Origin: a candidate division WOR-3 bacterium
Lineage (GTDB): Bacteria; Hydrothermota; Tepidihabitantia; SM23-42; JAOAFX01
DNA: 40,459 nt
Assembly: GCA_039802265.1 (NCBI GenBank)
Contig: JBDRWI010000014.1
Location: 1-40,459, forward strand
Direction of reading: 5' to 3'
Shown here piece after piece: positions 1 to 22,128 of the stretch. The notes beneath the pieces were generated by a model. It made no database searches and was not told the DNA's origin. It worked only from the letters and a program-made list of their open reading frames with translations. How positions within the stretch are numbered: position 1 is the stretch's first letter; the number at the start of each line of letters is the position of its first letter. A program made the position numbers and the translations under genes.

Positions 1-2
1 AT

Positions 3-767
3 GGTTTTTATTCAAAATGGATGTTATATCAGGGAATAATTGAGTTGAATAAAGAAACGAATTTATGGATTATATTTTTGGTTGCTGCAATGTTTGGAAG
101 CGTTTTGACTTTAGCATCATTTTTGAAAATGACACACTCTCTATTTTTAGGTGAAAGACCAAAGGAACTTGATAAGGTGCGTGAAGTGAGATTTGGAATG
201 ATAACGCCTACACTGATACTTGCTTTTCTTTGTATTATATTCGGTATTTTTGCCGAAAAAATTCCCCTCGCACGATTGATATATCCATCCTTACCATTCT
301 TTAAAATTGAACCGATTGGTTTCTGGTCTGCAGGATTAACGACAATTTTAATGATTTTAGGTCTTGTAATCGGATTGATTATATTTATTTTTGGAACCGG
401 ACTCAAGCCCAGGAAGGGAAAGGTATTTGTTGGCGGAGAGGTCCTTGATACTGAAGAGGCAAGGATTACCGGTCCGAATTTTTATTCATCTGTCCACCAA
501 ATTGATATGTTAGAAAAGACATACAAATTTGGTGAAGAGGGGGCGTTTGATTTTTATAATTATCTCCGCGGGGTATTGGGTGGATTTTCAGTTCTTTTCA
601 GAGAAGTGATTAATCAATTCTTTGTCATAATCTATCAGTCTTTGTCAAGAATTGTAGTTGCGCTTGGAAGTATCTTTTCTGCTATTCACACTGGTGAGTT
701 GCAGGGATATATAGGTTTGATATTTTTAGGGCTATTGATAATATTGCTACTGTTAGGAGTGAGATAA
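3..767 (+). CDS. Proton-conducting membrane subunit (MnhD/NuoL/HyfB family) with MbhI-like C-terminus; 5'-truncated by the window edge
   Basis: Frame is open from position 3 (GFYSKWMLYQ, matching the NGFxSKW motif); hydrophobic helices; C-terminal HTGELQGY. Confidence 0.8.
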   Translation, partial: GFYSKWMLYQGIIELNKETNLWIIFLVAAMFGSVLTLASFLKMTHSLFLGERPKELDKVREVRFGMITPTLILAFLCIIFGIFAEKIPLARLIYPSLPFFKIEPIGFWSAGLTTILMILGLVIGLIIFIFGTGLKPRKGKVFVGGEVLDTEEARITGPNFYSSVHQIDMLEKTYKFGEEGAFDFYNYLRGVLGGFSVLFREVINQFFVIIYQSLSRIVVALGSIFSAIHTGELQGYIGLIFLGLLIILLLLGVR

Positions 768-1303
768 TGATTGAGATATATCTATTTTTAGTCTTTATGA
801 TTATCGCTGCAATCATTGCGATTGAAATAAAGGATTTGCTTGCAGCAGCTATTGCTGTTGGCGCAGTTGGCTTTTCAGTGGCAATTCTTTTTATTTTGCT
901 CCAGGCACCAGACCTTGCTATTGTTCAGATTGTTGTAGAGATTCTTACATTGATAATATTTGTCGCTGTAATTTTCAGGACAACGGATATTGACGCGACC
1001 GTGGATAAAAAACTCACACCAGCACAGATTGTAGGTTTGGTTTTTTATGGGTTTTTTGTGATACTATTTATTGTTGTAATGGAGCGTATATTCAACACTC
1101 TGCCACCTTTCGGCTCACCAATTATGAAAGTGGCGAGCGAATATATAAAACTGGGTTTGCCCAAAGTCGGTGGTGCAAACATTGTGGCAGATATAATCCT
1201 TGATTTCCGCGGACTTGATACACTCGGTGAGGCAACGGTACTATTCACATCAGTGATTGGAGTACTGGCGGTGATGAGGAAATATGGGAAAAAGGCAACT
1301 TAA
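767..1303 (+). CDS. Mrp/Mbh subunit, DUF4040 plus MnhB N-terminal part (MbhD/E-like)
   Basis: LQAPDLAIVQIVVE and NIVADIILDFRGLDTLGEATVL motifs. Confidence 0.85.
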   Translation: MIEIYLFLVFMIIAAIIAIEIKDLLAAAIAVGAVGFSVAILFILLQAPDLAIVQIVVEILTLIIFVAVIFRTTDIDATVDKKLTPAQIVGLVFYGFFVILFIVVMERIFNTLPPFGSPIMKVASEYIKLGLPKVGGANIVADIILDFRGLDTLGEATVLFTSVIGVLAVMRKYGKKAT

Positions 1304-1367
1304 GGCAATTGGGGGCAATACGAGGCTTGTTAGAAAAAGGCAACTTAAGGCAATTGGGGGCAATTAG
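1284..1367 (+). CDS. Putative 27-aa bridging mini-ORF over the left arm of element 1
   Basis: GAGGA then ATG at 1284; open to TAG 1365-1367, which overlaps GTG 1367. Confidence 0.35.
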   Translation: MGKRQLKAIGGNTRLVRKRQLKAIGGN

Positions 1368-1372
1368 TGGCA
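1288..1372. repeat. Element 1 left arm: 10-nt-periodic GGCAA units containing a perfect 32-bp direct repeat
   Basis: GGC at 1294/1304/1314/1324 and 1339/1349/1359/1369; 1288-1319 is identical to 1333-1364. Confidence 0.9.
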
Positions 1373-1798
1373 GGAGGAAAAGAAGGCATAATGAGACAAA
1401 ATAAGATAAGAGAAGGCAAAAGAGGACATAAGAATATGATAGTATGGCAGAGTATTGATCAACTTGATATGATTGTTCAAAAAATTCTAAAAAAGATACC
1501 CAAGTATGAATTTAAATTGCGTTCACAGATTGATGACGCCTCAGATTCTGTAGGAGCAAATTTTGTAGAAGGTTATTACAGTGGATTTCTTACTGAATAT
1601 ATCAGGTTTTTGACATATAGTCGTAGGTCATTGGGCGAGCTTCAAGAGAGAATAAGAAGGGTTTTACGCAAAGGTTATATTACAAAAATTGAATTCGATG
1701 ATTTTGATGAAAGGTCTGGAAAGACAATGTTTCTTTTGAATCGCTTGATATACTCACTGAAGAACAAACAGAATTGCAAAAGGAGCAAAAGTGACTAA
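1367..1798 (+). CDS. Four-helix-bundle protein 1 (23S rRNA IVP-like; PF05635/TIGR02436 type)
   Basis: IVWQ...LRSQIDDASDSVGANFVEGY...YIRFLTYSRRSLGEL; alternative start at ATG 1391. Confidence 0.9.
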   Translation: MAGGKEGIMRQNKIREGKRGHKNMIVWQSIDQLDMIVQKILKKIPKYEFKLRSQIDDASDSVGANFVEGYYSGFLTEYIRFLTYSRRSLGELQERIRRVLRKGYITKIEFDDFDERSGKTMFLLNRLIYSLKNKQNCKRSKSD

Positions 1799-1967
1799 AT
1801 TATCACTGAGCGCCATTTATTATCTTTGGTTGCCCTGTTTTGTTCTTGGTTGCCATCAATTGCCACTTGTAGCCGTTAATTGCCCTGAATTGCCATTAAA
1901 TGCCCTGAAATGCCTTAAATTGCCATCGATTGCCTTGGTATGCCTTGTATATTGGAGGTATTTATGA
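1791..1967 (+). CDS. Putative 58-aa bridging ORF over the right arm of element 1
   Basis: AGGAG 1781-1785 then GTG 1791 overlapping the upstream stop; stop-free to TGA 1965-1967, overlapping mnhB ATG 1964 (ATGA). Confidence 0.4.
   Translation: MTKLSLSAIYYLWLPCFVLGCHQLPLVAVNCPELPLNALKCLKLPSIALVCLVYWRYL
1811..1950. repeat. Element 1 right arm: about 14 tandem 10-nt TGCCnTnnnT units, reverse complement of the left arm
   Basis: GCC at 1812, 1832 and every 10 nt from 1852 to 1942. Confidence 0.92.
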
Positions 1968-2395
1968 GTTTGATCGTCAGGCGTATCACAAACCTTGTCA
2001 GTGGTTTTATATTTATGTATGGTATCTATATTATTTTGCATGGACATTTAACACCGGGTGGTGGTTTTGCTGGTGGCGTTATTGTTTCGGGTGCATTAAT
2101 TTTGCGGGTCCTTTCTTTTGGAAGTGCTGCGGAAAAAGAAAAAAGATTATCTACGATTGGTTCGGTATTTGAAAGTATCGGTGCCCTGCTCTTCTGGGGT
2201 GCAGCGTTTACGGGATTATTGGTAGCAGGTGTATTCTTTTTGAACGAACCCATTTTTGGACTCGGTAAACCCTTACATCTTTTCAGTGCTGGTTTGATAC
2301 CAATATGTAATATTGCGATCGGTATAAAGGTTTCGGTTGGCCTATTATCTATTTTCCTTGCCCTTGCCGCATTGAAATATATAATGGAGGACTGA
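1964..2395 (+). CDS. mnhB: Na+/H+ antiporter MnhB-like subunit (MbhF)
   Basis: HGHLTPGGGFAGG motif; RBS GGAGG 1954-1958 before ATG 1964. Confidence 0.88.
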   Translation: MSLIVRRITNLVSGFIFMYGIYIILHGHLTPGGGFAGGVIVSGALILRVLSFGSAAEKEKRLSTIGSVFESIGALLFWGAAFTGLLVAGVFFLNEPIFGLGKPLHLFSAGLIPICNIAIGIKVSVGLLSIFLALAALKYIMED

Positions 2396-2396
2396 T

Positions 2397-2891
2397 ATGA
2401 GTGAAAAGCCGATAAACGTTAACCGTGAACCGTTTACCGATTATGAAAATTTTGTTTTTGATTTTGAAAAACTTGATGTCTATCAACTTGCGCTTGATTT
2501 TGTTGACGAAGTTTTTGAAATTACTTCTAAAATACCGTGGCAATTGCAAAGTTCGCTCGGTGACAATTTCAGACGTGCCGCACTTTCTATTGTGAGCAAT
2601 ATTGCTGAAGGCAGTGGTAAGATTTCTAATAGAGAGAAAAAGCATTACTACAAGATAGCACTAACATCCGACCGTGAATGTATCCCAATGATAACGCTTT
2701 TGAAAAGGCGTAAGCTCATAAGTCAGAATATTTATGAAAATCTCCGCGAAATTTGCATTCGTATTTCTTCTATGTTGATTAAACTTGAGCAATCGGTTAA
2801 CGGTAAACGGTCAACGGTAAAAGGTACGCATAATTATGATGTCGGTCAACGGTCAACGGTAAACGGTAGACGATATAATAAGGAGGACTAA
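2397..2891 (+). CDS. Four-helix-bundle protein 2 (23S rRNA IVP-like), with both repeat arms inside the ORF ends
   Basis: FDFEKLDVYQLA...FRRAALSIVSNIAEGSG...IALTSDREC. Confidence 0.92.
   Translation: MSEKPINVNREPFTDYENFVFDFEKLDVYQLALDFVDEVFEITSKIPWQLQSSLGDNFRRAALSIVSNIAEGSGKISNREKKHYYKIALTSDRECIPMITLLKRRKLISQNIYENLREICIRISSMLIKLEQSVNGKRSTVKGTHNYDVGQRSTVNGRRYNKED
2407..2441. repeat. Element 2 left arm: five 7-nt units, consensus AACCGTT
   Basis: agccgat aaacgtt aaccgtg aaccgtt taccgat. Confidence 0.85.
2792..2875. repeat. Element 2 right arm: two blocks of five 7-nt units, consensus AACGGTM
   Basis: 2792-2826 atcggtt aacggta aacggtc aacggta aaaggta; 2841-2875 gtcggtc aacggtc aacggta aacggta gacgata. 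Confidence 0.9.
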
Positions 2892-3229
2892 TGGTTGTTT
2901 TCGCAAGTTGTATGATTTTATTTCTAATTGGTTTGTATGCAGTTGTTGCAAAGCGCAATTTAATAAAGATTGCGATTGGATTTGCAATAATGGAGTATGC
3001 CGTAAATTTGCTCTTTGCATTAATTGGTTTTAAAAAGGGCGCGATTGCACCAATCATAACGAAACTTGATATGCCTCATAATTTTGTTGACCCGGTCCCC
3101 CAAGCACTTGTTCTTACCGCAATTGTGATTGGTCTTGGAACAACTGCATTGCTCCTATCCTTCATTGTGCGCATATACGAAAAGTTCAAGACATTTGATG
3201 TGAGTGAGATAAAGAAGTTAAAGGGCTAA
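2891..3229 (+). CDS. mnhC: Na+/H+ antiporter MnhC-like subunit (MbhG)
   Basis: VDPVPQALVLTAIVIG motif. Confidence 0.92.
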   Translation: MVVFASCMILFLIGLYAVVAKRNLIKIAIGFAIMEYAVNLLFALIGFKKGAIAPIITKLDMPHNFVDPVPQALVLTAIVIGLGTTALLLSFIVRIYEKFKTFDVSEIKKLKG

Positions 3230-3234
3230 CAAGA

Positions 3235-3345
3235 ATGGGTGAAGAAGGGAAAATAAGGTTGAAAAGGGGTAAAAAAGGGATAGTTGAAAAAGGTATGGGT
3301 GAAGAAGGAAGAAAAGAGGTGAATGGGGGAAAAGGAGTGAAAGGC
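3235..3345. repeat. Element 3 left arm: roughly 10-nt-periodic purine units (GGGTGAAGAA-like)
   Basis: gaagaaggga aaataaggtt gaaaaggggt aaaaaaggga; ATGGGTGAAGAAGG at both 3235 and 3295. Confidence 0.8.
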
Positions 3346-3723
3346 TTAATGGGCAAGGGATATACCAAGTTAATTGTATGGAAAAATGCTTGTGAATTGA
3401 GGAAATTAGTATATGAAATTACCAAAAAGTTCCCGACGAAAGAAATAAGGCGTGTAACGCAGATGCGTGATAGCGCAAGGTCTATAAAGCAGAATATTCA
3501 GGAAGGATACAAGAGAAGTTCAATCGGTGATTACATTCATCATCTTTCAATTGCCCAAGGTTCTCTTGGTGAACTTTCTGGCGATGTTGATGATTGTCTT
3601 GAGGATAATCTCATTAATAATAGAGAATATGCAGTTCTCAATAATTTAATTGTGCGGACAGATTATCTCCTGATGAGATTAATTCAATCACTCACCAAAA
3701 AGAAATTGGAGGTAACGGCATGA
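3235..3723 (+). CDS. Four-helix-bundle protein 3 (23S rRNA IVP-like); core may start at ATG 3349
   Basis: GYTKLIVWKNA...FP.KE...QMRDSARSIKQNIQEGY...IAQGSLGEL; AGGAG RBS before 3349. Confidence 0.9.
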   Translation: MGEEGKIRLKRGKKGIVEKGMGEEGRKEVNGGKGVKGLMGKGYTKLIVWKNACELRKLVYEITKKFPTKEIRRVTQMRDSARSIKQNIQEGYKRSSIGDYIHHLSIAQGSLGELSGDVDDCLEDNLINNREYAVLNNLIVRTDYLLMRLIQSLTKKKLEVTA

Positions 3724-3806
3724 TTAAAATATTATATCAAGCCGCGTTTTCCCCTCTTTACCCGTTTTTTCCCCTCTTCTCCCTTTTAATAAGGAGGAGA
3801 GCATGA
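3720..3806 (+). CDS. Putative 28-aa bridging mini-ORF over the right arm of element 3
   Basis: GGAGG 3708-3712 then ATG 3720; ATGA overlaps at both ends (four-helix-bundle stop and mnhD start). Confidence 0.4.
   Translation: MIKILYQAAFSPLYPFFPLFSLLIRRRA
3748..3788. repeat. Element 3 right arm: 10-nt-periodic CCC/pyrimidine units
   Basis: cccctcttta cccgtttttt cccctcttct cccttttaat; complementary to the left arm. Confidence 0.8.
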
Positions 3807-5293
3807 CCTTTCTACCACTTTTAATTGCTATACCTTTGTTATCTGCCTTCCTCATACCTCTTCTCTCTAAATTATGGAAACCATTTGCACCAATTATTGG
3901 CAATATTACTACTTTTTTATTATTTGTTCTTTCGTTATATGGAATTGCAGTAATCCAGGGATTTCCGATGCTCGTTTATAAATTTGGTAACTGGCCACCG
4001 CCGATCGGTATCGTATTTAGTTTTGATGCCCTATCGGCATTTATGGTATTGGTGATTTCAATTGTAGTATTTTCTGGGGCAATATTTGCTGTCCGTTATT
4101 TAAATCATTATACAGGTCAATGGAAATTCTGGACATTATATATGTTGATTACTACAGGTTTAATGGGTATTTCTGTAACCGGTGATTTATTCAATATGTT
4201 TGTCTGGATAGAAATCTCTGCAATCGCTTCTTATGCCCTTGTGAGTTTCGGTATAGAAGCAGAAGAACTTGAGGCTTCTTTTAAATATATGGTGATGGGC
4301 GAAATCGCCGGTATGACACTTCTTTTGACGATAGCATTGATTTATGCCAAGACTTCTACATTGAACCTTGCGGATATTGCCCTTTCTTTGCAATCAATAA
4401 AGGATTCGGCGTTCTACTGGTCCGTCCTTGCGCTTTTACTCTTTGCCTTTTCAGTAAAGGCAGCACTTGTGCCATTCCATTTCTGGCTCCCCGATGCCCA
4501 TCCGGCAGCACCTGCCCCCATTTCAAGCCTTCTATCCGGTGTATTTATCAAAGTCCTTGGAGTTTATACAAGTGCCCGGTTTATTTTTAATATATTCGGT
4601 CTCAATCGTGAAAATGCGCCTTTCTTCTTTAATATTCTTATTGGCTTGGGGCTTTTATCAATAATCTTCGCAGGAGTTACTGCACTAAACCAGAATGATT
4701 ATAAACGCCTGTTGGGATATTCTACGGTTTCCCAGGTTGGTTATATAATGCTTGGTTTAGGGGTTGGTAATTTTTATGGTGTTGCGGGTGCAATACTATA
4801 TATCCTTGCCCATGCACTTGCCAAAGGCTTACTATTTTTAACATCAGGTTCTGTAGTATATGCAACCGGCACGAGGGATATTAATAAACTGGGTGGTCTT
4901 GGTGAGAGAATGCCGACAACTGCCTGGAGTTTTAGATTTGGTGCTTTGTCTTTGATAGGACTTCCACCACTTGTGGGGTTCTTCGCAAAATTTTTAATCG
5001 CCATTGGTGCGATAAAACAAGGGTTCTTGTGGCTTGCAATCGTGGCAATTGGATTCAGCGGTGTTACCCTTGGTTATTTGCTAAAGATTGAAAACAATGT
5101 ATATTTGAAGAAAAATGGGGTAGAGGCTAAAGAATCTCCATTCCTTATGCGTGTGGCAATGGTATTTTTGGTCATTTTAATTATTCTCTTGGGAATTGGG
5201 TATAAACCAATGATGGATTTTGTGATACAACCGGCGGCTGAGGCTCTACTCAGAGGAACTGAATACATCAATCTGATATTGGGAGGATTATGA
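3803..5293 (+). CDS. mnhD: Na+/H+ antiporter MnhD-like subunit (MbhH)
   Basis: GDLFNMFVWIE, PFHFWLPDAHPAAP and KRLLGYSTVSQVGY motifs. Confidence 0.92.
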   Translation: MTFLPLLIAIPLLSAFLIPLLSKLWKPFAPIIGNITTFLLFVLSLYGIAVIQGFPMLVYKFGNWPPPIGIVFSFDALSAFMVLVISIVVFSGAIFAVRYLNHYTGQWKFWTLYMLITTGLMGISVTGDLFNMFVWIEISAIASYALVSFGIEAEELEASFKYMVMGEIAGMTLLLTIALIYAKTSTLNLADIALSLQSIKDSAFYWSVLALLLFAFSVKAALVPFHFWLPDAHPAAPAPISSLLSGVFIKVLGVYTSARFIFNIFGLNRENAPFFFNILIGLGLLSIIFAGVTALNQNDYKRLLGYSTVSQVGYIMLGLGVGNFYGVAGAILYILAHALAKGLLFLTSGSVVYATGTRDINKLGGLGERMPTTAWSFRFGALSLIGLPPLVGFFAKFLIAIGAIKQGFLWLAIVAIGFSGVTLGYLLKIENNVYLKKNGVEAKESPFLMRVAMVFLVILIILLGIGYKPMMDFVIQPAAEALLRGTEYINLILGGL

Positions 5294-5355
5294 GCGATAA
5301 GGGTGAAGAAGGGTTAAGAAGGGTCAATAAGGGTGAAAGGGGGGATGGGCAATGA
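5290..5355 (+). repeat. Solo element-3-type arm (10-nt GGGT units) read through by a 21-codon bridging ORF
   Basis: GGGT at 5301/5311/5321/5331 and GGGG at 5341; ATG 5290 to TGA 5355 with ATGA overlap at both ends. Confidence 0.8.
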
Positions 5356-5837
5356 AATATGTAATTTATTTCATCATTGGTTTTTGCTTGTGGTTGCTTT
5401 TAACTCTGACAACAAATTTAGATCATATACTTGTTGGTGTGATTGTAGTTCTCTTGGGGACAATATTATTTGGTGGTTATTTTACGGATAAACCACAAAA
5501 ATTGCTCCAGCCGCATAGATTATTCTGGTTGATAATTTATGTTCCTGTATTTATATGGTATATGATCAAAGCAAACCTTGATGTAGCATACCGAACTCTC
5601 CATCCCCAGAGACCATTGAAACCAGGTATTGTTAAGATTAAGACGAATCTGAAATCCGATACCGGAAAAGTATTTTTGGCGAACTCAATTACCCTTACCC
5701 CAGGAACGATGACCGTGGACATAGATGGAGATTATCTCTACATCCACTGGATTTATGTTCAGGCAACCGATATTGAGAATGCATCAAAGATTATTGCCCG
5801 ACCATTTGAGCGGTTTTTGAGGAGGATATTTGATTAG
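5352..5837 (+). CDS. mnhE: Na+/H+ antiporter MnhE-like subunit (MbhA)
   Basis: LANSITLTPGT and LYIHW motifs. Confidence 0.92.
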   Translation: MKYVIYFIIGFCLWLLLTLTTNLDHILVGVIVVLLGTILFGGYFTDKPQKLLQPHRLFWLIIYVPVFIWYMIKANLDVAYRTLHPQRPLKPGIVKIKTNLKSDTGKVFLANSITLTPGTMTVDIDGDYLYIHWIYVQATDIENASKIIARPFERFLRRIFD

Positions 5838-6081
5838 CACCCGAAACCCGAAAAGATGTTCAAGCGTTTTACGGTTGCGAAATGCGCTAAGGTTTAGAAA
5901 AGCGGTTTCGTGTTACGACCAACTACAGACGAATCGCTTTTCGCAACCAACAAACAACGACATTTCATTTGGATTATTGAAATTCGTGATTTGTTTGGGA
6001 TTTGGTGCTTGGGATTTGGGATTTATAGAGAAAAGTGCATTTGCTCGATTTATCTGGCATTCAATGAGGAGTGTATTATGA
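5830..6081 (+). repeat. Gene-less insert with 7-nt arms and an internal inverted repeat, spanned by an 83-codon bridging ORF
   Basis: cccgaaa x2 at 5840-5853; tttggga tttggtg cttggga tttggga at 5994-6021; inverted repeat 5873-5886 / 5935-5948. Confidence 0.7.
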
Positions 6082-6332
6082 TTCTGATGTTTATAGTTCT
6101 TACCTTCAGTGCGTTCTTATGTTTATATAGAATTCAGCAGGGTCCGACAATTCCGGACCGTGCCGTGGGTGTGGATATTATGGGAACGATATTTGTAAAT
6201 ATTACTGCTCTCACCGCAATATTCTATAATCTGCCTTATCTTATGGATCTGGCAATCATCATCGCCTTGTTCAGTTTTATTGGCACCCTTGCCCTTGCAA
6301 AGTATCTGGAAAGAAGGAGTTTAGATGATTAG
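6078..6332 (+). CDS. mnhF: Na+/H+ antiporter MnhF-like subunit (MbhB)
   Basis: GPTIPDRAVGVD...FIGTLALAKYL; RBS GAGGAG 6066-6071. Confidence 0.88.
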   Translation: MILMFIVLTFSAFLCLYRIQQGPTIPDRAVGVDIMGTIFVNITALTAIFYNLPYLMDLAIIIALFSFIGTLALAKYLERRSLDD

Positions 6333-6702
6333 CCCGATTGGCTGGATAATAATCTGGATTGGAATTTTGTTTAATTTGTTAGGAACCGTGGGACTTGTCC
6401 GATTCCCTGATATTTACAATCGTCTCCAGACTTCTACAAAATGTGTTACCCTTGGTTCATTCGGTTTAATGATTGGTATATTCTTGCTTTATGGCTTTTC
6501 CCAGACGGGTATAAAGGCGTTAATCTGTGGTGTATTCTTGCTTTTGACCAATCCTGTGGGTGCCCATGCAATACTGAAAGGGTCGCTCCATTATGGAATA
6601 AAACTCTGGAAAGAGTCTATTGTTGATAAATACGGTGCTGAGAAGCTTGGTGGAGAGCAGATAGAAGAAAAAGGGTTAAGAGGTGAGAATAAGGGTGAAT
6701 AA
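6325..6702 (+). CDS. mnhG: Na+/H+ antiporter MnhG-like subunit (MbhC)
   Basis: RFPDIYNRLQ...K.VTLG and TNPVGAHAI motifs. Confidence 0.9.
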   Translation: MISPIGWIIIWIGILFNLLGTVGLVRFPDIYNRLQTSTKCVTLGSFGLMIGIFLLYGFSQTGIKALICGVFLLLTNPVGAHAILKGSLHYGIKLWKESIVDKYGAEKLGGEQIEEKGLRGENKGE

Positions 6703-6712
6703 GAAAAATAAT

Positions 6713-6735
6713 GTAGGGCAAGGCTTTAGCCTTGC
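6713..6735 (+). repeat. GTAG-class REP-like hairpin
   Basis: GTAG-G-GCAAGGCT-TT-AGCCTTGC. Confidence 0.65.
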
Positions 6736-6755
6736 AAGAATATCCGGGAGGCAAG

Positions 6756-7361
6756 ATGCGTAAGCCAAAATTAAGGGAACTTGGTGAGGCAATAAGGGCG
6801 ATATTTAAAGGTCCTTATACAAGTAAATTTCCGTTTAAACCTTCGCCAGCGGCAAAAAGATTTCGTGGTAAAATAGAATTTAATTTTGACAAGTGCATTT
6901 TATGCGGTGCCTGCGTTGAGGTATGTCCGGCAAATGCCCGTGCCCAGATTGATGATAAAATCAAAAGAGTGCGCCGGGAGATCCATTATCAGGAGCGTTG
7001 TATATATTGTGGTCAGTGTGTAGCATACTGCACAACAAAAGAAGGGATATATCACACCCAGGAATATGACCTGGCGCAGATAACAAAAGAAGGTTATGAC
7101 AATGCGATTGAGAAGGAATTGATTCTTTGTGAGCGCTGCGGTGAGGTGATCACCACCCGGGCGCAGTTATTATGGATTGCACGCCGGGTTGGCGAACTTG
7201 CCTATGCCAATCCCAATCTATTTTTGGTATTATCACAAGAATTCGGTGAGGAGGCGATACCCAAAATGCCTTCTCCACCACCATACCGTAGTGAACATTT
7301 AAGATTTTTGTGTCCATCCTGTAGAAGAACCGTATATCTCCAGGAAGTCTGGGGATATTAA
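6756..7361 (+). CDS. 2x[4Fe-4S] subunit (MbhN/NuoI/EchF-like)
   Basis: CILCGACVEVCP and CIYCGQCVAYC, plus extra CERC and CPSC pairs; RBS GGAGG before ATG 6756. Confidence 0.85.
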   Translation: MRKPKLRELGEAIRAIFKGPYTSKFPFKPSPAAKRFRGKIEFNFDKCILCGACVEVCPANARAQIDDKIKRVRREIHYQERCIYCGQCVAYCTTKEGIYHTQEYDLAQITKEGYDNAIEKELILCERCGEVITTRAQLLWIARRVGELAYANPNLFLVLSQEFGEEAIPKMPSPPPYRSEHLRFLCPSCRRTVYLQEVWGY

Positions 7362-7615
7362 AAAATGGTTTTTGGTGAATGGGCTTAGATGCTGATATGG
7401 CAATTGGGTATAGTAAAAGTTAAATGTAAACTTTTGGTATCACCTGTTTTGCAATAGAAAAATATGTGCCAGGATTGAATCGTTATAGTTGTTGTAAACA
7501 AGATGTCTGGTATAATACATATTAGGGTATAATAAAACCAATATTTTTTATCATAATCTGTTTAGGACACAATAATTATTAACAAAGGTGAAGGGTGGTA
7601 AGAACAATCGCAAGG

Positions 7616-7643
7616 TTGACAATCTTCCGTTTATGAATATAAT
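7616..7643 (+). promoter_or_regulatory. Sigma70 promoter for the tRNA
   Basis: TTGACA-N16-TATAAT. Confidence 0.8.
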
Positions 7644-7664
7644 TAAAATTAAGTAAATATCAAT

Positions 7665-7738
7665 GGGCCCGTAGCTCAGGTGGTTAGAGCAGCTGACTCA
7701 TAATCAGCGGGTCGTGGGTTCAAGTCCTACCGGGCCCA
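7665..7738 (+). tRNA. tRNA with CAT anticodon, probably tRNA-Ile2 (lysidine); CCA not encoded
   Basis: Cloverleaf GGGCCCG...CGGGCCCA; anticodon arm GCTGA-CTCATAA-TCAGC; GTTCAA T-loop; C4 and C5 in the acceptor stem as in TilS substrates. Confidence 0.92.
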
Positions 7739-7762
7739 GTCTGCTTGAATTTTTAATAGATT

Positions 7763-8173
7763 ATGAACTGGTCTGTTCATCCAGCCCGGGATAATCCGGT
7801 AAAAACAATTCTAAGTTTAATTTTTATTTTTGGATTTCTTTTTTTTGTTCTCATCTTTTATGGTCTGTTATGGGCATTGCTGGGCTTCATTTTTCTCTTT
7901 GCCTCACTTCATTCCTATTTCTTTCCTACTTATTATGCCATCGATGAAGAATCCATTCAGATTAGGAATATCTTTACGACACAAAAGAGGAAGCTCAAGG
8001 AGTTTAAAAAGGTTTACTTGGGTAGAAATGGTGTGCTTTTTAGTCCGTTCAGGCATAAGACATTCTTGAACCAATTTCGGGGTGTCTATCTTTTATTACC
8101 ACCCGAAAAGGAAGAAATAATTTCTTATCTCAATAATCACATTGTTTCCATAATTGAGGGAAGAAGTGAGTGA
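7763..8173 (+). CDS. Hypothetical membrane protein (two TM helices and a small soluble domain)
   Basis: ORF with hydrophobic N-terminus, overlapping the next gene. Confidence 0.7.
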   Translation: MNWSVHPARDNPVKTILSLIFIFGFLFFVLIFYGLLWALLGFIFLFASLHSYFFPTYYAIDEESIQIRNIFTTQKRKLKEFKKVYLGRNGVLFSPFRHKTFLNQFRGVYLLLPPEKEEIISYLNNHIVSIIEGRSE

Positions 8174-9659
8174 TATAGACATACTCGCACAGCGGTATGC
8201 TGCAGATTTTACAATTCCAATAGGACTTGCTCAAATAATTGCCCGCCGTTTTCCGAAATACGATGAGGCACGGGATTTTTTAAGTCCATCGACAAGCAAA
8301 CTTTATCCTCCCAATACAATGCCTGATATAGAAGAGGCATCGAAGGAGATATACAATGCTATCCAGAGAGATTTTCCAATATTGATCTATTGCCACGATG
8401 ACCCTGATGGTTATACATCAGCAACGCTGATTTATAAAACAATTTGTGATTTGAGAAAAGGGGGTAGTCCCGAAATTTTTATCTATCCGATAAATCGTGA
8501 GAAGGATGGATATGTTTTAAATCCCGTGGTACTCGATGAATATATAAAAAAAGGAATCAAGACCATCATTACGGTTGATTTTGGAATAAGCAATCCAGAA
8601 AATTTTCGCATTGCCCGGGATAAAGGGCTTCACCTTGTGGTCTGTGACCATCACGAGACCAATATTACAAAATTTTCATTTCCGGCTGTTGACCCTAAAA
8701 GGGTTGATTCAAAATATCCTTTCCGTGAGCTTGCCGGGGTCGGCGTTGCCTTTAAATTGTCTCAATATTTATTCCAAAAATTTCTTGGATTGAATGCCCA
8801 TGATTACTACAATTTAAAAAAAGAATTTTGGGCGATTACGATGCTTGGAACTATTGCGGACCGGGTTACACCAATTAGTGAAAACAGGATTTTTTGTTAT
8901 GAAGGATTGAAGGCAATTAATAAACTTGACCTGCCATGGGTAAGATATTTCTTAAAAGACGGACCTATAGACTTTCCGAGGGTCATCTCCGAGTTAGTGC
9001 CGATATTCATATCTGCCGCACATTTAGATTCTAAGTTGGGCATTGAATTACTAAATTCTGGAGGCGTTGAATGGGTCTATAAAACCATAAATGAATTAAA
9101 GTTAGTTGAGGAAGAGCGTAAAAAATTAATTGAAAATTTTACCAGTGAGGCAATTAGTATGTCAAAGGTCTTTGAGGGAGTGGTGTTTTCAGTATTTACC
9201 AAAACTACCAATGGACTCAAATTGCACCATTTAGGTGGCATTGCATCCCGATTGAGAGATCACTTCGGTAAAACTGCCGTTGTCCTTTTGTTGCAGAATG
9301 GACGATATTTTGGTGAATTGAGGTCATACAAAATAGACCTTTATGAGTTGCTCAATAGTATGAAGTATCTATTTATTGATTTTGGGGGGCATAAAAGGGC
9401 AGCTGGATTTTCAATGGCGGAGGGGAATCTTGATAAGTTTATTGAAGAGGTGTGCAATTTTATATCAAGATATAGTAGATACGATTCTGAAATTAAAACT
9501 GAACCCGAGGCAACAATTGATAAGACGCAGGTAAGGATTCTTGAACCGCTTATGCCTTTTGGTGACGGGAATCGTGCTCCCATCTTGACTGATGGCGTGG
9601 ATTTATATACAATAGACCATAAGTTTAATATAATTGACTTAGGACTATGGCAAACTTAA
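8166..9659 (+). CDS. recJ: DHH-family phosphoesterase, RecJ-like ssDNA exonuclease (C-terminally short)
   Basis: DDPDG, TVDFG, DHH, GTIAD and GGHKRAAGF motifs; start uncertain (8154 or 8166). Confidence 0.8.
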   Translation: MSDIDILAQRYAADFTIPIGLAQIIARRFPKYDEARDFLSPSTSKLYPPNTMPDIEEASKEIYNAIQRDFPILIYCHDDPDGYTSATLIYKTICDLRKGGSPEIFIYPINREKDGYVLNPVVLDEYIKKGIKTIITVDFGISNPENFRIARDKGLHLVVCDHHETNITKFSFPAVDPKRVDSKYPFRELAGVGVAFKLSQYLFQKFLGLNAHDYYNLKKEFWAITMLGTIADRVTPISENRIFCYEGLKAINKLDLPWVRYFLKDGPIDFPRVISELVPIFISAAHLDSKLGIELLNSGGVEWVYKTINELKLVEEERKKLIENFTSEAISMSKVFEGVVFSVFTKTTNGLKLHHLGGIASRLRDHFGKTAVVLLLQNGRYFGELRSYKIDLYELLNSMKYLFIDFGGHKRAAGFSMAEGNLDKFIEEVCNFISRYSRYDSEIKTEPEATIDKTQVRILEPLMPFGDGNRAPILTDGVDLYTIDHKFNIIDLGLWQT

Positions 9660-13808: not shown

Positions 13809-14408
13809 TTATCTTTTACGGCTTACCTTTTTAGTCTTCTTCTCTTTCTTTTTTCTTTTTTTCTCTTCTTTTTTCTTTCTTTTTTTCTCCTTCTCTACCT
13901 TTTTCTCTTTTACGATTTCTTTCTCTTTCTTAGCCGCTTCTTTTGTAACCTTCTCTTTCTTCACCTTTTCTTTCTTCTCTTTCTTACCTTCCACCTTCGC
14001 AATATATCGGTGCTCAATAAGTTTACGGCGTAAATTCAATGTTTCGGGTTCACTCTTCTCGGTTAGTTCAAGAATCGCCATCTCTGCACCATCGCCAAGC
14101 CTTGGACCAAGGTGATAGATTCGGGTGTATCCACCGATACGATTCGTGAATTTTGGTGCTATTTCATCACAGACAATTTTAACAAGCTTGTGGTCACACA
14201 GATAACGGTAGATATACCTCCTCGCGGATAGGTCACCCCTTTTAGCAATATCAATCAAGCGCTCGGCGAGACGCCGGGCCTCTTTTGCCTTTTGAATGGT
14301 TGTCTTGATTTTCTCAAAGATGAATAGCGCCCGGCACAAATTTCTTAAAAGGGCAACGCGGTGTGCCTTCTTCCTGCCCAGTTTTTTAATCCTTTTACCG
14401 TGTCTCAT
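13809..14408 (-). CDS. rplQ: 50S ribosomal protein L17 with Lys/Glu-rich tail
   Basis: MRHGKRIKKLGR and GGYTRI...GDGAEMA motifs. Confidence 0.95.
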   Translation of the reverse strand: MRHGKRIKKLGRKKAHRVALLRNLCRALFIFEKIKTTIQKAKEARRLAERLIDIAKRGDLSARRYIYRYLCDHKLVKIVCDEIAPKFTNRIGGYTRIYHLGPRLGDGAEMAILELTEKSEPETLNLRRKLIEHRYIAKVEGKKEKKEKVKKEKVTKEAAKKEKEIVKEKKVEKEKKRKKKEEKKRKKKEKKTKKVSRKR

Positions 14409-14416
14409 AAGTGCAG

Positions 14417-15487
14417 TTAAATATCTTCCTTCAGATACTTATCAACTTCCATTTCTAAATGCAAACCCATATTATGCAATATCTTCTCAAGTTCTTTTAG
14501 TGACTTTCTGCCGAAATTTTCATAGGACAAAAGTTCTCTTCCACTTTTGCGCACAAGGTCACCAATCGTCATTATATTCCGGCTCTTGAGACAATTGGAG
14601 GTCCGGACTGAAATCTCAAGTTCATCAATGCTCCTCTTCAATATCTCACGGATCCGGCGGTGCTCGGCATCAAGCTGTTCTTTTGAGGTAAATAATGGCT
14701 CAATCACCAGTTGTAACCCCTTCTTATTGAGTGTATCCCTTAATTCATCTACTGTTTTTCTGACTGAATCTTCAATCATATAGATAGGCCTACCCAGTTC
14801 CGTAAATAATAACAGATGATGTCTCAAAAGGCTTGCTGCCTCTACCACTGCCTCAAGGGGTGTCACTGTCCCGTCGGTCTTTACTTCAAGAACCAGATGG
14901 TCGTAGTCCGTCTTGGTTCCGACGCGCACATTCTGAACATTGAAATTTACTGAAAGCACTGGGGAGAATAGGGCATCCATAAAAATTGTACCGACCGGGG
15001 CATCCCCTTTCTTCAAATTTTCGGCAGTTACATAGCCTCTACCTGCCTCTACCTTCATCTCCATTGTGAGATTAACCTTTGAGTCATTCACGGTCAATAT
15101 TTTCTGGGTAGGGTTGGTAATGACTACCAGAGGATTTTTTTCTATATCACCGGCGAAATATTCTTTCTTTCCCTTTACCTTTAAATTGATATTTACCGGC
15201 GTATCACTAAATAATTTTACCCTTATCTTTTTTAGATTTAAAATTATCTTAACTACATCTTCTTCCACGCCGGGAATCGTTGAAAATTCCTGCGCCACAT
15301 CACTAATTCGGACACTGGTGATCGCTGCTCCTTGAATAGAAGAAAGGAGCATACGGCGCAGGGCATTACCGATAGTTATTCCATATCCCCTTTCCAGAGG
15401 CGAGACAATAAATCTACCAAAGGTGTCATTCGTAACTTCTTTATCTATCTCTATGCCTTTGGGCATTACCATTGGTTTTAAATGCAT
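14417..15487 (-). CDS. rpoA: RNA polymerase alpha subunit
   Basis: PLERGYGITIGNALRR and NFGRKSL motifs. Confidence 0.97.
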   Translation of the reverse strand: MHLKPMVMPKGIEIDKEVTNDTFGRFIVSPLERGYGITIGNALRRMLLSSIQGAAITSVRISDVAQEFSTIPGVEEDVVKIILNLKKIRVKLFSDTPVNINLKVKGKKEYFAGDIEKNPLVVITNPTQKILTVNDSKVNLTMEMKVEAGRGYVTAENLKKGDAPVGTIFMDALFSPVLSVNFNVQNVRVGTKTDYDHLVLEVKTDGTVTPLEAVVEAASLLRHHLLLFTELGRPIYMIEDSVRKTVDELRDTLNKKGLQLVIEPLFTSKEQLDAEHRRIREILKRSIDELEISVRTSNCLKSRNIMTIGDLVRKSGRELLSYENFGRKSLKELEKILHNMGLHLEMEVDKYLKEDI

Positions 15488-15495
15488 AAGACTCC

Positions 15496-16125
15496 TTACT
15501 TGGAATACAATTCAACAATTAAATTTTCCTGAATTGGTATTGTTACATCCTCACGCTTTGGCAGTCTAATTATAGTGCCGCTCATATTCTCTTTGTTAAA
15601 CTTAAGCCAGCCCACAATTTTTTCTGGGTCTCTTTCCTCTAACGCCCTTCTAACCAGTGGATTGTTCCGCATCGATTCACTGAGCGAAACCACTTGATTC
15701 ACCTTTACCTGGTATGATGGTATATCAACTTTCTTTCCATCAACGAGTATGTGGCCATGCCGGATTAGTTGCCGTGCCTGGGTCCTTGATGAGGCCATAC
15801 CCAGTTGATAGACAACATTATCAAGCCTTCTTTCCAGGGCGATCAAGAGATTTTCGCCTGGTGCACCGGCTTTTTTTACTGCCTCGGCGAAGAACTTACG
15901 GAACTGCCTTTCTAATAATCCATAGACAACCTTTACCTTCTGCTTCTCCCTCAGTTGTGAGGCATAGGATGTCAATTTTCTTCTGCCGGATTTTCCGTGC
16001 ATCCCCGGTGGATAACCGCGTCTGCCGAAAGAACATTTATCTGTATAGCAGCGACTTCCTCGCAGAAATAATTTTTCACCCTCCCGACGACAGATCTTAC
16101 ATTTCGGTCCAATATAACGTGCCAC
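15496..16125 (-). CDS. rpsD: 30S ribosomal protein S4
   Basis: GTG start, ARYIGPKCKICRREG and LERRLDNVV. Confidence 0.96.
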   Translation of the reverse strand: MARYIGPKCKICRREGEKLFLRGSRCYTDKCSFGRRGYPPGMHGKSGRRKLTSYASQLREKQKVKVVYGLLERQFRKFFAEAVKKAGAPGENLLIALERRLDNVVYQLGMASSRTQARQLIRHGHILVDGKKVDIPSYQVKVNQVVSLSESMRNNPLVRRALEERDPEKIVGWLKFNKENMSGTIIRLPKREDVTIPIQENLIVELYSK

Positions 16126-16127
16126 TT

Positions 16128-16520
16128 TCAAACCCTCCTTCGCCTTGGTGGGCGACATCCATTGTGTGGCAATGGGGTCACATCCTTTATCGCTGTAATG
16201 ACAAGTCCAACAGTCTGCAATGTCCTTATTGCCGCTTCTCTTCCTGGACCCGGTCCCTTGATTCTTACCTCGATTTTCTTTACACCCCGCGATAGTGCCT
16301 CCTTTCCCACGGCAGTTGCACACTGCTGAGCCGCATAGGCAGTTCCCTTCTTTGTTCCCTTGAAGCCGCATCTTCCAGCAGATGACCAGCACAGTGTATT
16401 TCCTTGATTATCGCAGATTGATATGATGGTATTATTAAATGAAGCAAAGATATTTGCGACACCTGCAATCTCAACCCGTGCGGCCCTTTTTTTCTTTGTT
16501 ACCTTCTGGCGAACGGGCAT
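16128..16520 (-). CDS. rpsK: 30S ribosomal protein S11
   Basis: ASFNNT and [13 protein letters not shown] motifs. Confidence 0.97.
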
Positions 16521-16564
16521 TAAAACCTCCTTCTACCTTTTTGCCGTTCCTTTAAGGGAGATAA

Positions 16565-16951
16565 TCATTTCTTTTCTCCTACTGCCCCTTTGCTTACCGC
16601 CACAGTTTTCCTCTTTCCCTTTCTTGTTCGGGCATTAGTTCGTGTTCGCTGTCCCCTTACGGGTAGTCCAATCTTATGCCGAATTCCGCGATAACAACCA
16701 ATATCAATCAACCTCTTTATATTCGCCGCAATATCAGCCCGCAGGATACCTTCAACCCGATAATCCGACTCAATAATCTTCCTGATTTTTGTTACCTCCT
16801 CATCGGTAAGGTCCTTTACTTTCTTGGTCGGGTCAACACCACAATTCAATACGATCTTACGGGCGGTAGAAAGCCCGATACCGTATATCGCCGTCAATCC
16901 ATATTCAACTTTCTTATTTAATGGTAAATCAACGCCGGCAATCCTGGGCAT
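16565..16951 (-). CDS. rpsM: 30S ribosomal protein S13
   Basis: RIAGVDLP and [18 protein letters not shown] motifs. Confidence 0.97.
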
Positions 16952-16954
16952 ATT

Positions 16955-17068
16955 CTATCCCTGTCGCTGTTTGTGCCGCGGATTCTTACAAATCACCATA
17001 ACTACACCCTTACGCTTTATAATCCGACAGGCAATACAACGCTTTTTAACTGATGACTTAACCTTCAA
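16955..17068 (-). CDS. rpmJ: 50S ribosomal protein L36 (absent from the ORF track)
   Basis: Hand translation from [49 protein letters not shown]. Confidence 0.95.
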
Positions 17069-17140
17069 TGTTAACTCCTTCTTTAAGAATTTCAGAAATA
17101 TTTATTATATATATTTTAGTAGAAAAATCAAGATGCATTT

Positions 17141-17359
17141 TTATTTATATCTCCACACAATCCGACCCCGGGAAAGGTCATAAGGAGAGAGTTCAAGCAA
17201 AACCCTATCACCGGGAAGTATCTTGATGTAACTCATTCTCATCTTTCCAGAGACATGGGCCAGAACCTTATGGCCATTGTCCAGTTCTACCCGAAACATC
17301 GCATTGGGCAGGGTTTCAATGATGGTGCCTTCAGTTTGAATTAAATCCTTGCGCGCCAT
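17141..17359 (-). CDS. infA: Translation initiation factor IF-1
   Basis: [14 protein letters not shown] and [10 protein letters not shown] motifs. Confidence 0.97.
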
Positions 17360-17364
17360 TTTAT

Positions 17365-18117
17365 TTATCCCTCGCTTACCCGGGTTACATTCAGATTGCC
17401 CTTCTCAAGGATAATAACCGTGTCTTCAAAATGGCAGGAAAGTGAGCGGTCACAGGTCAAAATCGTCCAGCCATTGGCTGCCGTCTTGACCCTGAACCCA
17501 CCACTATTTACCATCGGTTCAATAGCAAGCACCATACCTGAGACTATTTCGGGGTCCGGACCATTCCAGACAAAATTGGGAATCATTGGGTCTTCATGTA
17601 ATTCCCTACCCACACCATGGCCAGTGAGTTCGCGCACGACACTAAATCCATTCTTCTCCACAAATTCCTGTATTGCCAGAGAGATATCCGAAATTCTATT
17701 GCCACACTTTGCAACGTTTATACCTTTTTTCAGCGCCTCTTTTGTAACCGCAACCAATCGTGCCGCCTCCTGAGGAACTTTTCCCACTATGAATGTCCGG
17801 GCAGCATCAGCAATATATCCATTATATTTAACCCCAATATCAATCTTAACCAGGTCACCTTCTTTTATTACCCGGCTGTCAGGAATACCATGCACAACTT
17901 CCTCATTCAATGAGATACAGACACTCTTGGGAAATCCCCGATAATTGTAGAATGCGGGAAGGGCATTATTCTCCCTGATTTTATTATCAATTATGTCATT
18001 TAATTCTATGGTCTTCATTCCTTTCAAATCCATTTTCTCGATCATTGAGAAGATTTTGTAAATAATATTACCGGCAATGACCACATTCTTAATAGCCTCT
18101 TCATTTAAAATAGCCAT
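17365..18117 (-). CDS. map: Methionine aminopeptidase type I
   Basis: [18 protein letters not shown] and HFEDT motifs. Confidence 0.95.
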
Positions 18118-18751
18118 CGATTACCTGAATCAGTCTCTTGAAGACCGTTTCCTTGTCACCCAGTGCTGAAACCTGTCTGTAGATTCCCTGTGCCTTGTAG
18201 TATTCGGCAAGGGGTCTGGTTTCTTCATTATAGATTAAGAGCCGATTCTTTATTACCTGTGGGTCATCATCCGGCCGCTTCACCAGTCTTGCTCCGCACT
18301 TATCACAGATACCACTTCGCACCGGTGGATTCGTGGCTTCGTTAAATATTGCCCCACACACCGGACAGTAGTTCCGTCCGGAAATCCTTGTGATTATCTC
18401 CTCCTCGGGCAGATACAATTCAATTGCCAAAACAAGTTTCAGGTTGTGTTGAGCAAGGATGCGCTCCAATCCCAGAGCCTGGTTTAAATTCCGGGGGAAG
18501 CCGTCAAATAGGATATTTTTGTGGGAATTTTCCAAAACAAAATCTTCAACGATCTCAAAGACAATATCATCCGAAACCAGAGTTCCCTTTTTTAAAACCC
18601 CTTCAACCATCTTGCCAATTTTACTTCCCGCAGCAACTTCTTCCCTTAAGATATCGCCCATTGAAAACTTTTTAAGATTGTATTTTTGCATCAAAAGTTC
18701 AGCCTGCGTTCCCTTACCAGCACCAGGTGGTCCAAATAACAAAAACATCAA
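18101..18751 (-). CDS. adk: Adenylate kinase with Zn-type LID
   Basis: GPPGAGKGTQA, DGFPRN and CPVC/CDKC. Confidence 0.96.
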   Translation of the reverse strand: MMFLLFGPPGAGKGTQAELLMQKYNLKKFSMGDILREEVAAGSKIGKMVEGVLKKGTLVSDDIVFEIVEDFVLENSHKNILFDGFPRNLNQALGLERILAQHNLKLVLAIELYLPEEEIITRISGRNYCPVCGAIFNEATNPPVRSGICDKCGARLVKRPDDDPQVIKNRLLIYNEETRPLAEYYKAQGIYRQVSALGDKETVFKRLIQVIDGYFK

Positions 18752-20061
18752 CGGCGTCCCCTGATTCTACCCTTTTTCATAAATCCTTCATAATGATACA
18801 TCAACAACTGGGATTCAATCTGTTGTAATGTATCCAGTGCAACACCCACAATAATGAGCAGGGTGGTTCCACCAAAATAAAAAGGTACTTTTAAGAAATT
18901 GATCAGATACCACGGAACAAGGGCAATAAATCCTAAAAATATTGCACCCGGAAGGGTAATTTTGGAAAGCACTCCATCAACATAGTCGGCTGTCTTTTGC
19001 CCGGGCCTTATCCCGGGAATAAATCCTCCGTAGCGTTTCATATTATCCGCAAGTTCAGTAGGGTTAAAGACAATTGAGGTATAAAAATAGGTGAAGAAAA
19101 TAATCAGGGCAAAATAGATTAAATCATAGGCCCAGAAGCCGGGTTTGAATACATCGGTTAGATACTTGAGACTCGGCACATAGGCCGCAACTGTTCCCGG
19201 AAAGACCACCAGGGACTGGGCAAAGATTATGGGAATAACACCGGCAGTATTCACCCGGAGGGGCAAAAATGTAGACTGTCCTCCGTACATCCTCCGGCCG
19301 ATTACCCTCTTTGGATATTGAACTGGAATTCTGCGGGTTGCCTGGGTCATTACAATTACCGCTGCCACGATCAAGACCATAATCACTACCACAATTAAAA
19401 GATTGATAAGTGTTATACCACCTGTCCCAACCATCTGGGCGGTTCTCATAAAGTAGATTGGATATTCCTCAAGGCAGCCGATAAAAATCAGAAATGAAAT
19501 GCCATTGCCAATACCCTTTTCGGTTATCTGTTCTCCTATCCACATGGCAAATATTGCACCGCAGGTAAGGGTCAACATTGCCGTTAGCCGGAATGCCCAA
19601 CCGGGATTGTAAACTATCGCCATCGTGCCTTCTGGACCGTTAAATTTCTGCATCTCAAGGAATACCGCAATACCGAACGCCTGAAATGCCGCCAGCCCCA
19701 CAGTGAGATACCGGGTATACTGGGTAATCTTTCTTCTCCCTGCCTGGTCACGCTGCAATTTCTCAATTTGAGGAAATACTGAGCCGAGCAATTGAAAGAT
19801 GATGGAAGAAGATATATAAGGCATTACACCCAAAAATAGTATTGCCGCCCTTGATAGGGCACCACCCACAAATATATCATACATCCCGAATAGCGAACCC
19901 TGCTGTTTTAATTGCTGCATCAAAAGTCCAAGTGCCTGGGCGTTTATCCCGGGTAGGGGAAGATGTGCACCCAGACGGTAGACTGCTACCGCCCCCAAGG
20001 TAAAGAGAAGTTTCCTTTTTAAGTCAGGAACCCTGAATATATTCTGAAATGTGGAGATCAC
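18748..20061 (-). CDS. secY: Preprotein translocase SecY
   Basis: GIGNGIS, IPGIRPG and [11 protein letters not shown] motifs. Confidence 0.97.
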
Positions 20062-20498
20062 TCTATCCTCTCAATCCTTCCCTTTGCCGCCAAGATTTTC
20101 TCCTCTGCCTTCTTTGAAAAGGCATGTGCCTTTACTACCAGGGGATGTTTGAGTTCACCTTGACTCAAAACCTTTACCAGAGAATCGTCTTTGATTATCC
20201 CTCTTTCCTTTAACAATTGGGGCGTTACGATGGTGTTGGGTTCAAACCGGTTCAACTGGAATAGATTAACAATTTCATATTCCTTCTTGAAGATATTAAC
20301 AAATCCGCGCTTGGGAATTCTGCGGGTCAAAGGCATCTGACCACCTTCAAATCCCATTTTGAGTCGGTAGCCCGAGCGCTGTTTGTGCCCCTTGTGCCCT
20401 CGGGTTGAGGTCTTACCATGGCCAGAACCCGGTCCACAACCCACGCGCTTTCTTTTCTTTATCGCTCCGGAAGGAGGTCTCAATTCACTTAGTTTCAT
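20058..20498 (-). CDS. rplO: 50S ribosomal protein L15
   Basis: [18 protein letters not shown] motif. Confidence 0.97.
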
Positions 20499-20682
20499 CT
20501 TCTACTATCTCCTCAATTGCTACCATATAGGAGATCTTTTTCAACATTCCGCGAATTGCCTTATTATCGGGAAAAATCCTGGATTGTCCAATCTTTTTTA
20601 AACCTAATGCCCTGAGGGTGAGTTTGTGTTTTTTTATCTTGTCAATCAGACTTTTCTTTAAGGTCACCTTTATTTTCTTCAT
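20485..20682 (-). CDS. rpmD: 50S ribosomal protein L30
   Basis: [13 protein letters not shown]...LRALGL; lies between rpsE and rplO. Confidence 0.92.
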
Positions 20683-21181
20683 ATTGCCTTCGTTTAGCAA
20701 TAAAATAATCAATTGGTTTATTTCTCATTTCAGCAGTCTTTTGAATGGAACGAATTGACCTGAGTGCCTTTATCGTTGCCATTGCCAGATTTGTCGGATT
20801 TCTTGAGCCGAATGCCTTGGAAAGGATATTCTTTATTCCCGCGGCCTGACACACTGCCCGCACCGCATTTGAGGCAATTATTCCACTGCCCGGAAGGGCG
20901 GGTTTCAAAATCACCTTACTTGCTGAATATTTTCCGAAGACGGAATGTAAAATTGTGCCCTCGTGCACATTCACCTCAACCATATTCTTCTTTGCGATCT
21001 CGGTTGCCTTTTTTATTGCTGGAGCAACCTCGGCCGATTTTGCATGGCCAATACCCACTTTGCCTGAGCCATCACCAACGACCACACAGGCATATAGTTT
21101 TAATCGCTTTCCTCCTTTAATTACCTTTGAAACCCTTTTAAGTTCGACGAGCTTCTCCACCAGTTCTATCGTCTCTTCCAT
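20642..21181 (-). CDS. rpsE: 30S ribosomal protein S5
   Basis: RVSKVIKGGK and VVVGDG.G.VG motifs. Confidence 0.96.
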   Translation of the reverse strand: MEETIELVEKLVELKRVSKVIKGGKRLKLYACVVVGDGSGKVGIGHAKSAEVAPAIKKATEIAKKNMVEVNVHEGTILHSVFGKYSASKVILKPALPGSGIIASNAVRAVCQAAGIKNILSKAFGSRNPTNLAMATIKALRSIRSIQKTAEMRNKPIDYFIAKRRQYEENKGDLKEKSD

Positions 21182-21194
21182 AATTCTCCTTTTT

Positions 21195-21536: not shown

Positions 21537-21544
21537 ACTTGATG

Positions 21545-22117: not shown

Positions 22118-22128
22118 AGTAAGATTTT

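Follow-up and report, generated by a model that had tools for sequence, protein, structure and literature searches.

Short open frames bridge the inserts that interrupt the operon of a Mrp/Mbh-type membrane complex in a candidate division WOR-3 bacterium, a hot-spring organism, and the pattern suggests that the host retains such inserts only where translation can run across them. The window analyzed here covers positions 1–40,459 of contig JBDRWI010000014.1 (GCA_039802265.1). According to Pfam and NCBIfam searches, the operon encodes MbhD/E, MnhB, C, D, E, F, G, and a 4Fe-4S subunit (Table 1). Six inserts lie between its genes: three PF05635/TIGR02436 four-helix-bundle cassettes (elements 1–3) and three arm-only or repetitive extragenic palindrome (REP)-like relics. 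The latter are a relic of a purine-rich decamer arm between mnhD and mnhE (D-E), a 240-nt heptamer-arm insert between mnhE and mnhF (E-F), and an arm with a REP-like palindrome between mnhG and the 4Fe-4S gene (G-Fe). The best explanation, with a probability of roughly 0.7, is host selection for translational coupling, under which an insert would survive only if an open frame runs through it in phase, and the bridge peptides would be junk.

The proposed course of events is as follows. Cassettes with repeat arms (and four-helix-bundle or other cargo), arm-only relics, and REP-like palindromes would arrive or grow at the stop/start junctions of a coupled operon, and where part of an insert goes untranslated, the downstream subunit would be uncoupled and the insert purged. 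In the survivors, which hold an in-phase open frame, the ribosome would terminate on the upstream gene, restart on the bridge (in many cases where the displaced gene formerly had its start signal), cross and melt the arms, and finish on the next start, with the bridge peptides as by-products. Such a constraint would belong to the host and would be strongest in multi-subunit complex operons of this order.

A sequence-only reading of the window had described a chain of eight frames between 1284 and 6763 that overlap or nearly adjoin their neighbors. Direct translation confirms that all eight are present, carry no internal stop, and have the overlaps described, while the other 2 forward frames over the same spans contain stops in 17 of 18 cases. 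Chance expectation was estimated with the insert ends fixed, the interior shuffled with dinucleotides kept, and 0–2 nt added; strict relays have start and stop offsets of −11..+6, loose ones of −20..+10. Among the 8 window segments tested (the 3′ arm of element 2, which lies inside the cargo open reading frame (ORF), is left out), 7 relay strictly (P 8.8e-5) and all 8 loosely (P 1.5e-4), so bridging frames are rarer in shuffled sequence. Individual segments are unremarkable alone, with null rates of 0.06–0.64. The weakest link is bridge 1 (1284–1367), which begins 20 nt inside the upstream gene and fails the strict test; its TAG overlaps GTG 1367 by 1 nt.

Comparison with relatives gives the same picture on a larger scale. 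MnhE is found in 32 of the 40 genomes searched (own genome included), and the operon region was taken from 30 relatives. Insert content varies among them from one junction to the next, through gain, loss, and exchange, and in most genomes of the sister family the sites are empty, the gap measuring −4 to +13. A loose relay is present in 57 of the 65 inserts longer than 20 nt, window included. With inserts split at cargo genes, near-identical segments collapsed, and only segments longer than 30 nt retained, 45 of 60 segments relay strictly and 55 loosely (14.2 and 21.3 expected, respectively), and the excess is alike in the arm-only, 5′-arm, and 3′-arm classes. Of the 11 filled E-F sites, counting that of the window, 10 keep the relay, with inserts of 42–273 nt. 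For inserts of 42, 54, 132, 144, 156, 214, 240, and 273 nt the relay always opens at the same TTG and reaches the start of mnhF, the exception being an insert of 136 nt. Unrelated repeat families at a single junction are all bridged. As for unusual arrangements, one cassette (relative L044, junction g0-DE) is stripped of almost all its four-helix-bundle gene and in L038 the whole E-F junction is tandemly duplicated; both still relay via 2 ORFs. Other cargo is carried at the mnhD–mnhE junctions of L035 and L039 and at the mnhG–4Fe-4S junction of L035, which from motifs we take to be a DUF559 endonuclease-like gene flanked by GC-rich palindromes, and a pair of genes of nucleotidyltransferase/HEPN-like type.

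It might be objected that stop-poor, low-complexity arms combined with ATGA-type starts yield open frames that are never translated. The single-segment null rates are in keeping with such a by-product, as is the fact that ATGA starts most mnh genes and so supplies the stop free. However, the null, which retains both composition and ends, yields only about one-third of the observed count, a shift of the real sequences by 1–2 nt lowers the strict relays from 45 to 19.6 of 60, and stops do occur in the other frames, which together make this account very improbable. The place where frames end is equally informative. Among single frames in 35 segments longer than 60 nt, the stop falls at −11..+6 relative to the next start in 23 (3.8 expected) and shortly before it, at +7..+40, in 3 (5.0 expected); of the remainder, 3 run deeper (0.6 expected), 5 end early (21.5), and a start is lacking in 1 (4.1). 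Ending on the next start points to a start-codon hand-over rather than to mere coverage of the arms.

Coverage deserves separate attention, since ribosomes could shield C-rich 3′ arms from Rho, or an arm stem from RNase III, with the end point being incidental. Rho and RNase III are both encoded, element 3 has a 3′ arm rich in C and poor in G, the arms are complementary and can form a stem (repeats I1 and I9), and the region of element 1 (1280–1975) folds with a z-score of −3.6. In addition, RNase III cuts the stems of PF05635 intervening sequences of 23S rRNA, according to PMC4990558, and a similar cut would break the mRNA. In contrast, element 3 is no better folded than its shuffles (z −1.4), the purine-only relic at 5290–5355 forms no stem (−1.1 kcal/mol) and is still bridged, cassettes with the same kind of arms in other phyla lack bridges, and the ratio of ends on the start to ends shortly before it, 23:3, far exceeds the expected 3.8:5.0. 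Coverage may act jointly with coupling; as the sole cause it is unlikely.

Bridges keep their frame while their peptides drift. Across 9 orthologous pairs the ratio of nonsynonymous to synonymous differences per site (pN/pS) is 0.81, against 0.03–0.11 for host genes and 0.12–0.18 for cargo, and no stop is seen in these pairs where about 10.7 are expected. Indels in E-F bridges are multiples of three (3 and 36 nt between the window and L033; 3, 18, and 6 nt between L035 and L038). As comparative evidence that selection keeps the frame and not the peptide, this is unusually clean. The E-F insert itself differs from that of L033 with a pS of 0.21, below that of host synonymous sites (0.47–0.60); it may be an element of structured RNA, or may have been transferred recently.

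The free peptide also bears on an attenuation-like scheme raised by the sequence-only reading, in which ribosome transit would switch arm pairing and tune the downstream genes. The arms are able to pair, and short ORFs at integron attC sites are said to relieve hairpin barriers (PMC8876359). However, the bridge peptide is not conserved, and the inserts are absent in most sister-family genomes, swapped among relatives, and in one case polymorphic within a sample. Terminator-like sites number 4 (6.4 ± 2.3 by chance), none of them within an insert, and the only Rfam match over 1–9000 is a tRNA. This part of the earlier reading is unsupported and the least probable of the explanations considered.

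A further possibility is that the elements are designed for the purpose, as in mycobacterial interspersed repetitive units (MIRUs), duplicating the junction on insertion and carrying a built-in bridging ORF. Element 2 fits this well: on either side of it the Shine-Dalgarno (SD)/stop/start junction recurs as a near-perfect direct repeat of 11 nt, and a contig of run X4 represents a clean empty allele, skipping 2395–2890 and otherwise identical to the window over 904 + 392 nt. The ends of the E-F insert form a degenerate repeat, and the D-E insert has ATGA at both ends. Because of junction duplication, coupled ends would come free at element 2 and, degenerately, at E-F. Strong duplication is nevertheless restricted to 2 of the 6 window inserts, and as a general mechanism it was rejected: a repeat score of at least 10 is found in 8 of 59 inserts, against 6.7% of cross-junction pairs. 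In run X4, element 2 seems to occur both as a filled and as an empty allele (depth 6.9 for the empty contig, low cover over the element), so the element is either young or lost by recombination between the flanking repeats.

Cassettes outside the operon show whose trait the relay would be. In 79 intact PF05635 loci of other phyla no excess of relays is found (5′ side 18/62 vs 18.6 expected, 3′ side 7/50 vs 7.9), nor is there one in 29 cassettes of the wider phylum (6/20 vs 4.9 and 4/18 vs 4.4). An apparent 5′ excess in other phyla (21/69 vs 9.8) was discarded because the first null destroyed the start of the cargo itself; the values above come from the corrected null. Within the same order, cassettes outside the operon have a moderate excess (5′ 19/41 vs 13.7, 3′ 25/43 vs 14.8; 60 of 271 matches, not de-duplicated). 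This last result speaks for design by the element, whereas the missing excess outside the order, the bridging of unrelated repeat families at a single junction, and the rarity of junction duplication speak against it and render it improbable, somewhat more so than coverage. Of the earlier claim that every insert preserves coupling, the relays beyond chance, their ends on the next start, and the frame kept without the peptide stand, and the notion that the inserts themselves are built for it does not. The 3 other PF05635 cassettes of the own genome (G000; C15 38393–38710, C23 31926–32249, and C5 7–192), read by eye, have short frames between cargo and neighbors, with gaps up to ~13 nt.

Other operons of the order were surveyed in 20 of the relatives each. 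Inserts in the ribosomal-protein operon relay strictly in 10 of 12 cases and loosely in 12 (6.4 and 8.2 expected). For the V/A-ATPase operon the corresponding numbers are 5 and 12 of 13 (1.6 and 4.9), with bridges of 57–186 nt ending in ATGA; 12 further gaps were dropped from this set, where gaps of 306–307 nt hold a real subunit gene below the match thresholds. In the own genome 16 of 36 arm-bearing gaps relay (7.7 expected), and among gaps with REP-like palindromes only 1 of 5 does, namely that in the Mrp/Mbh operon. An excess in complex operons of this order with none in the cassettes of other phyla suggests that the constraint is the host's. The relay is far beyond chance and, on these sequence comparisons, appears general to such operons. 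Taken together, the excess of frames, their precise ends, the frame kept without the peptide, and the absence in cassettes of other phyla point to host selection for coupling, and we infer that the bridges are translated and that coupling is the target of selection.

Several observations weigh against this reading. P values are overstated because kin and shared inserts are not independent, though lengths and repeat families differ. The 9 pairs used for pN/pS were hand-picked from open frames, 3 inserts with non-PF05635 cargo were left out of the relay test, and 5 of 72 segments fail both the strict and the loose test. Most downstream genes have a GGAGG of their own, so coupling may not be essential, and many uninterrupted junctions in the sister family are gaps of 9–13 nt, not overlaps. 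Besides, 11 of 23 bridges start with TTG or GTG and some begin 14–20 nt inside the upstream gene; coupling is weaker for such starts or deep overlaps, according to PMC12548453. Across the genome, repeat-family gaps show a weak excess (24/128 vs 19.8), and repeat-free gaps also exceed the null (164/543 vs 126.8), partly via missed small genes and miscalled starts; these tests use a simple purpose-made gene caller. A tentative extension, a little short of an even bet, is that termination-reinitiation is so indispensable to the multi-subunit complex operons of this order that no insert lasts without a translated bridge.

The individual elements add detail. The final codons of the MbhD/MbhE gene extend into the 5′ arm of insert 1, and in relatives this gene stops earlier. 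Bridge 2 overlaps the stop of cargo 1 by 8 nt, the N-terminus of cargo 3 is the purine-rich 5′ arm read in frame, and bridges often start at the former start signal of the displaced gene (E-F and D-E); at E-F the TTG and GGAGG of bridge 5 occupy the position of the mnhF SD and start in insert-free relatives. All 3 cargo genes are above the PF05635 cut-off, and PDB entries 2GSC and 2RLD are matched by the PF05635/TIGR02436 four-helix-bundle protein. Neither bridge 2 nor bridge 5 has a match in Pfam or NCBIfam. Folding of the ribosome sites downstream reveals no clear pattern of occlusion. Arm and palindrome families of the window inserts are also found elsewhere across the own genome: the region of bridge 6 (6655–6750) gives 38 blastn rows, i.e., the palindrome, which we take to be GTAG-type REP-like, is repeated. 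A 173-nt copy of the E-F insert (5838–6070, inner hairpin included) with 77% identity lies at 38442–38614 of C13 in G000. On the same contig as the Mrp/Mbh operon with its six inserts, a ribosomal-protein/secY/RNA polymerase alpha cluster (13809–22518, minus strand; names judged from translations) has no repeat inserts, and a 189-nt gap (16952–17140) resembles an overlooked small ribosomal gene.

Table 1. Host genes, cargo genes, and bridging frames of the Mrp/Mbh operon region, in order along the window
Feature	Position	Strand	Remarks
MbhD/MbhE (MrpA C-terminal/MrpB-like) subunit, host gene	767..1303	+	PF13244, PF20501
Bridge 1, 27 aa, ATG	1284..1367	+	Spans 45-nt tandem duplication of 5′ arm (repeat D4)
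Cargo 1, four-helix-bundle protein	1367..1798	+	PF05635, TIGR02436; GTG 1367 start uncertain, later in-frame ATGs present
Bridge 2, 58 aa, GTG	1791..1967	+	Crosses 10-nt-period 3′ arm (D3, I1); ATGA on mnhB
mnhB	1964..2395	+	PF04039
Cargo 2, four-helix-bundle protein	2397..2891	+	Both heptamer arms within ORF; +1 from mnhB stop; TAATG on mnhC
mnhC	2891..3229	+	PF00420, NF005621
Cargo 3, four-helix-bundle protein	3235..3723	+	Starts 5 nt past mnhC stop
Bridge 3, 28 aa	3720..3806	+	Crosses pyrimidine-rich 3′ arm (C 29%, G 8%); ATGA at each end
mnhD	3803..5293	+	PF00361, NF006240
Bridge 4, 21 aa, arm-only relic	5290..5355	+	ATGA at each end; start behind GGAGG within mnhD final codons
mnhE	5352..5837	+	PF01899
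Bridge 5, 83 aa, TTG	5830..6081	+	240-nt insert, heptamer arms and inner hairpin; 8-nt overlap; ATGA on mnhF
mnhF	6078..6332	+	PF04066
mnhG	6325..6702	+	PF03334; C-terminal tail is decamer arm sequence (repeat D1)
Bridge 6, 22 aa, GTG	6695..6763	+	Over REP-like palindrome; 8-nt overlaps at both ends
4Fe-4S dicluster subunit (NuoI/HycF-like)	6756..7361	+	Profile searches

Among the closest known systems is the MIRU, a short conserved dispersed repeat of ~40–100 bp that duplicates an ATGA junction on insertion. According to PMC12548453, which describes Supply et al. 1997, MIRUs insert at start codons and carry a small ORF coupled at −4 nt, thought to render the insertion harmless; likewise, insert ends lie at −4 in 4 of 6 window cases and in 17 of 23 tight single bridges of the relatives. 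The inserts work like a MIRU but are not one: they comprise several repeat families (decamer arms, heptamer arms, REP-like) of 21–660 nt with or without cargo, chains reach 3 ORFs with offsets of −20 to +5, and the relay appears to be a trait of the host operon and lineage, not of an element family. In integrons, translation of ORF-11/17/18 and of attC short ORFs, rather than their peptide, takes ribosomes past a hairpin and on to the following gene (PMC8876359), whereas here core operons, stop/start junctions, and low-complexity repeat arms are involved. Intervening sequences of 23S rRNA share the PF05635/TIGR02436 ORF between complementary arms able to form a stem (PMC4990558), but the present elements lie between protein genes of an mRNA operon and their arms are open-frame. 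PF05635 is also linked to Avd in PMC10053308. Some bacterial miniature inverted-repeat transposable elements and REP-like repeats carry open frames fused in frame to genes, according to PMC2229807; arms here similarly extend the termini of MnhG and cargo, but otherwise form stop-to-start relays. Leader-peptide attenuators differ in their conserved peptide and in the terminator hairpin with U tract, neither of which the bridges and inserts have. No description of bridging ORFs in four-helix-bundle cassettes was recognized by title or abstract opening in the literature, where subscription papers are incompletely covered and supplements excluded. Bridging by translation is already familiar from MIRUs and the short ORFs of integrons, and what would be new is a host-selected relay in these cassettes and complex operons.

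The comparison provides evidence that selection can act on mere translation across junk DNA, with frame and end kept and the peptide free. It bears on how strictly coupling requires short stop-start distances, which PMC12548453 and PMC10666635 address; in the latter, coupling is nearly gone at ~20 nt, and heteromeric complexes show an enrichment of overlaps. It also offers dozens of natural junctions for testing, for which matched empty sites exist, and would explain the tolerance of repeat-armed four-helix-bundle cassettes within core operons. As a caution, such short ORFs may appear in profiling without being functional proteins. If the reading is true, this lineage would produce numerous peptides that are unannotated and drift neutrally, many of them hydrophobic products of the pyrimidine-rich arms. 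Its operons would then form a natural mutagenesis series for the offsets, start codons, and lengths that permit coupling, as well as a nursery of new small proteins and terminal extensions.

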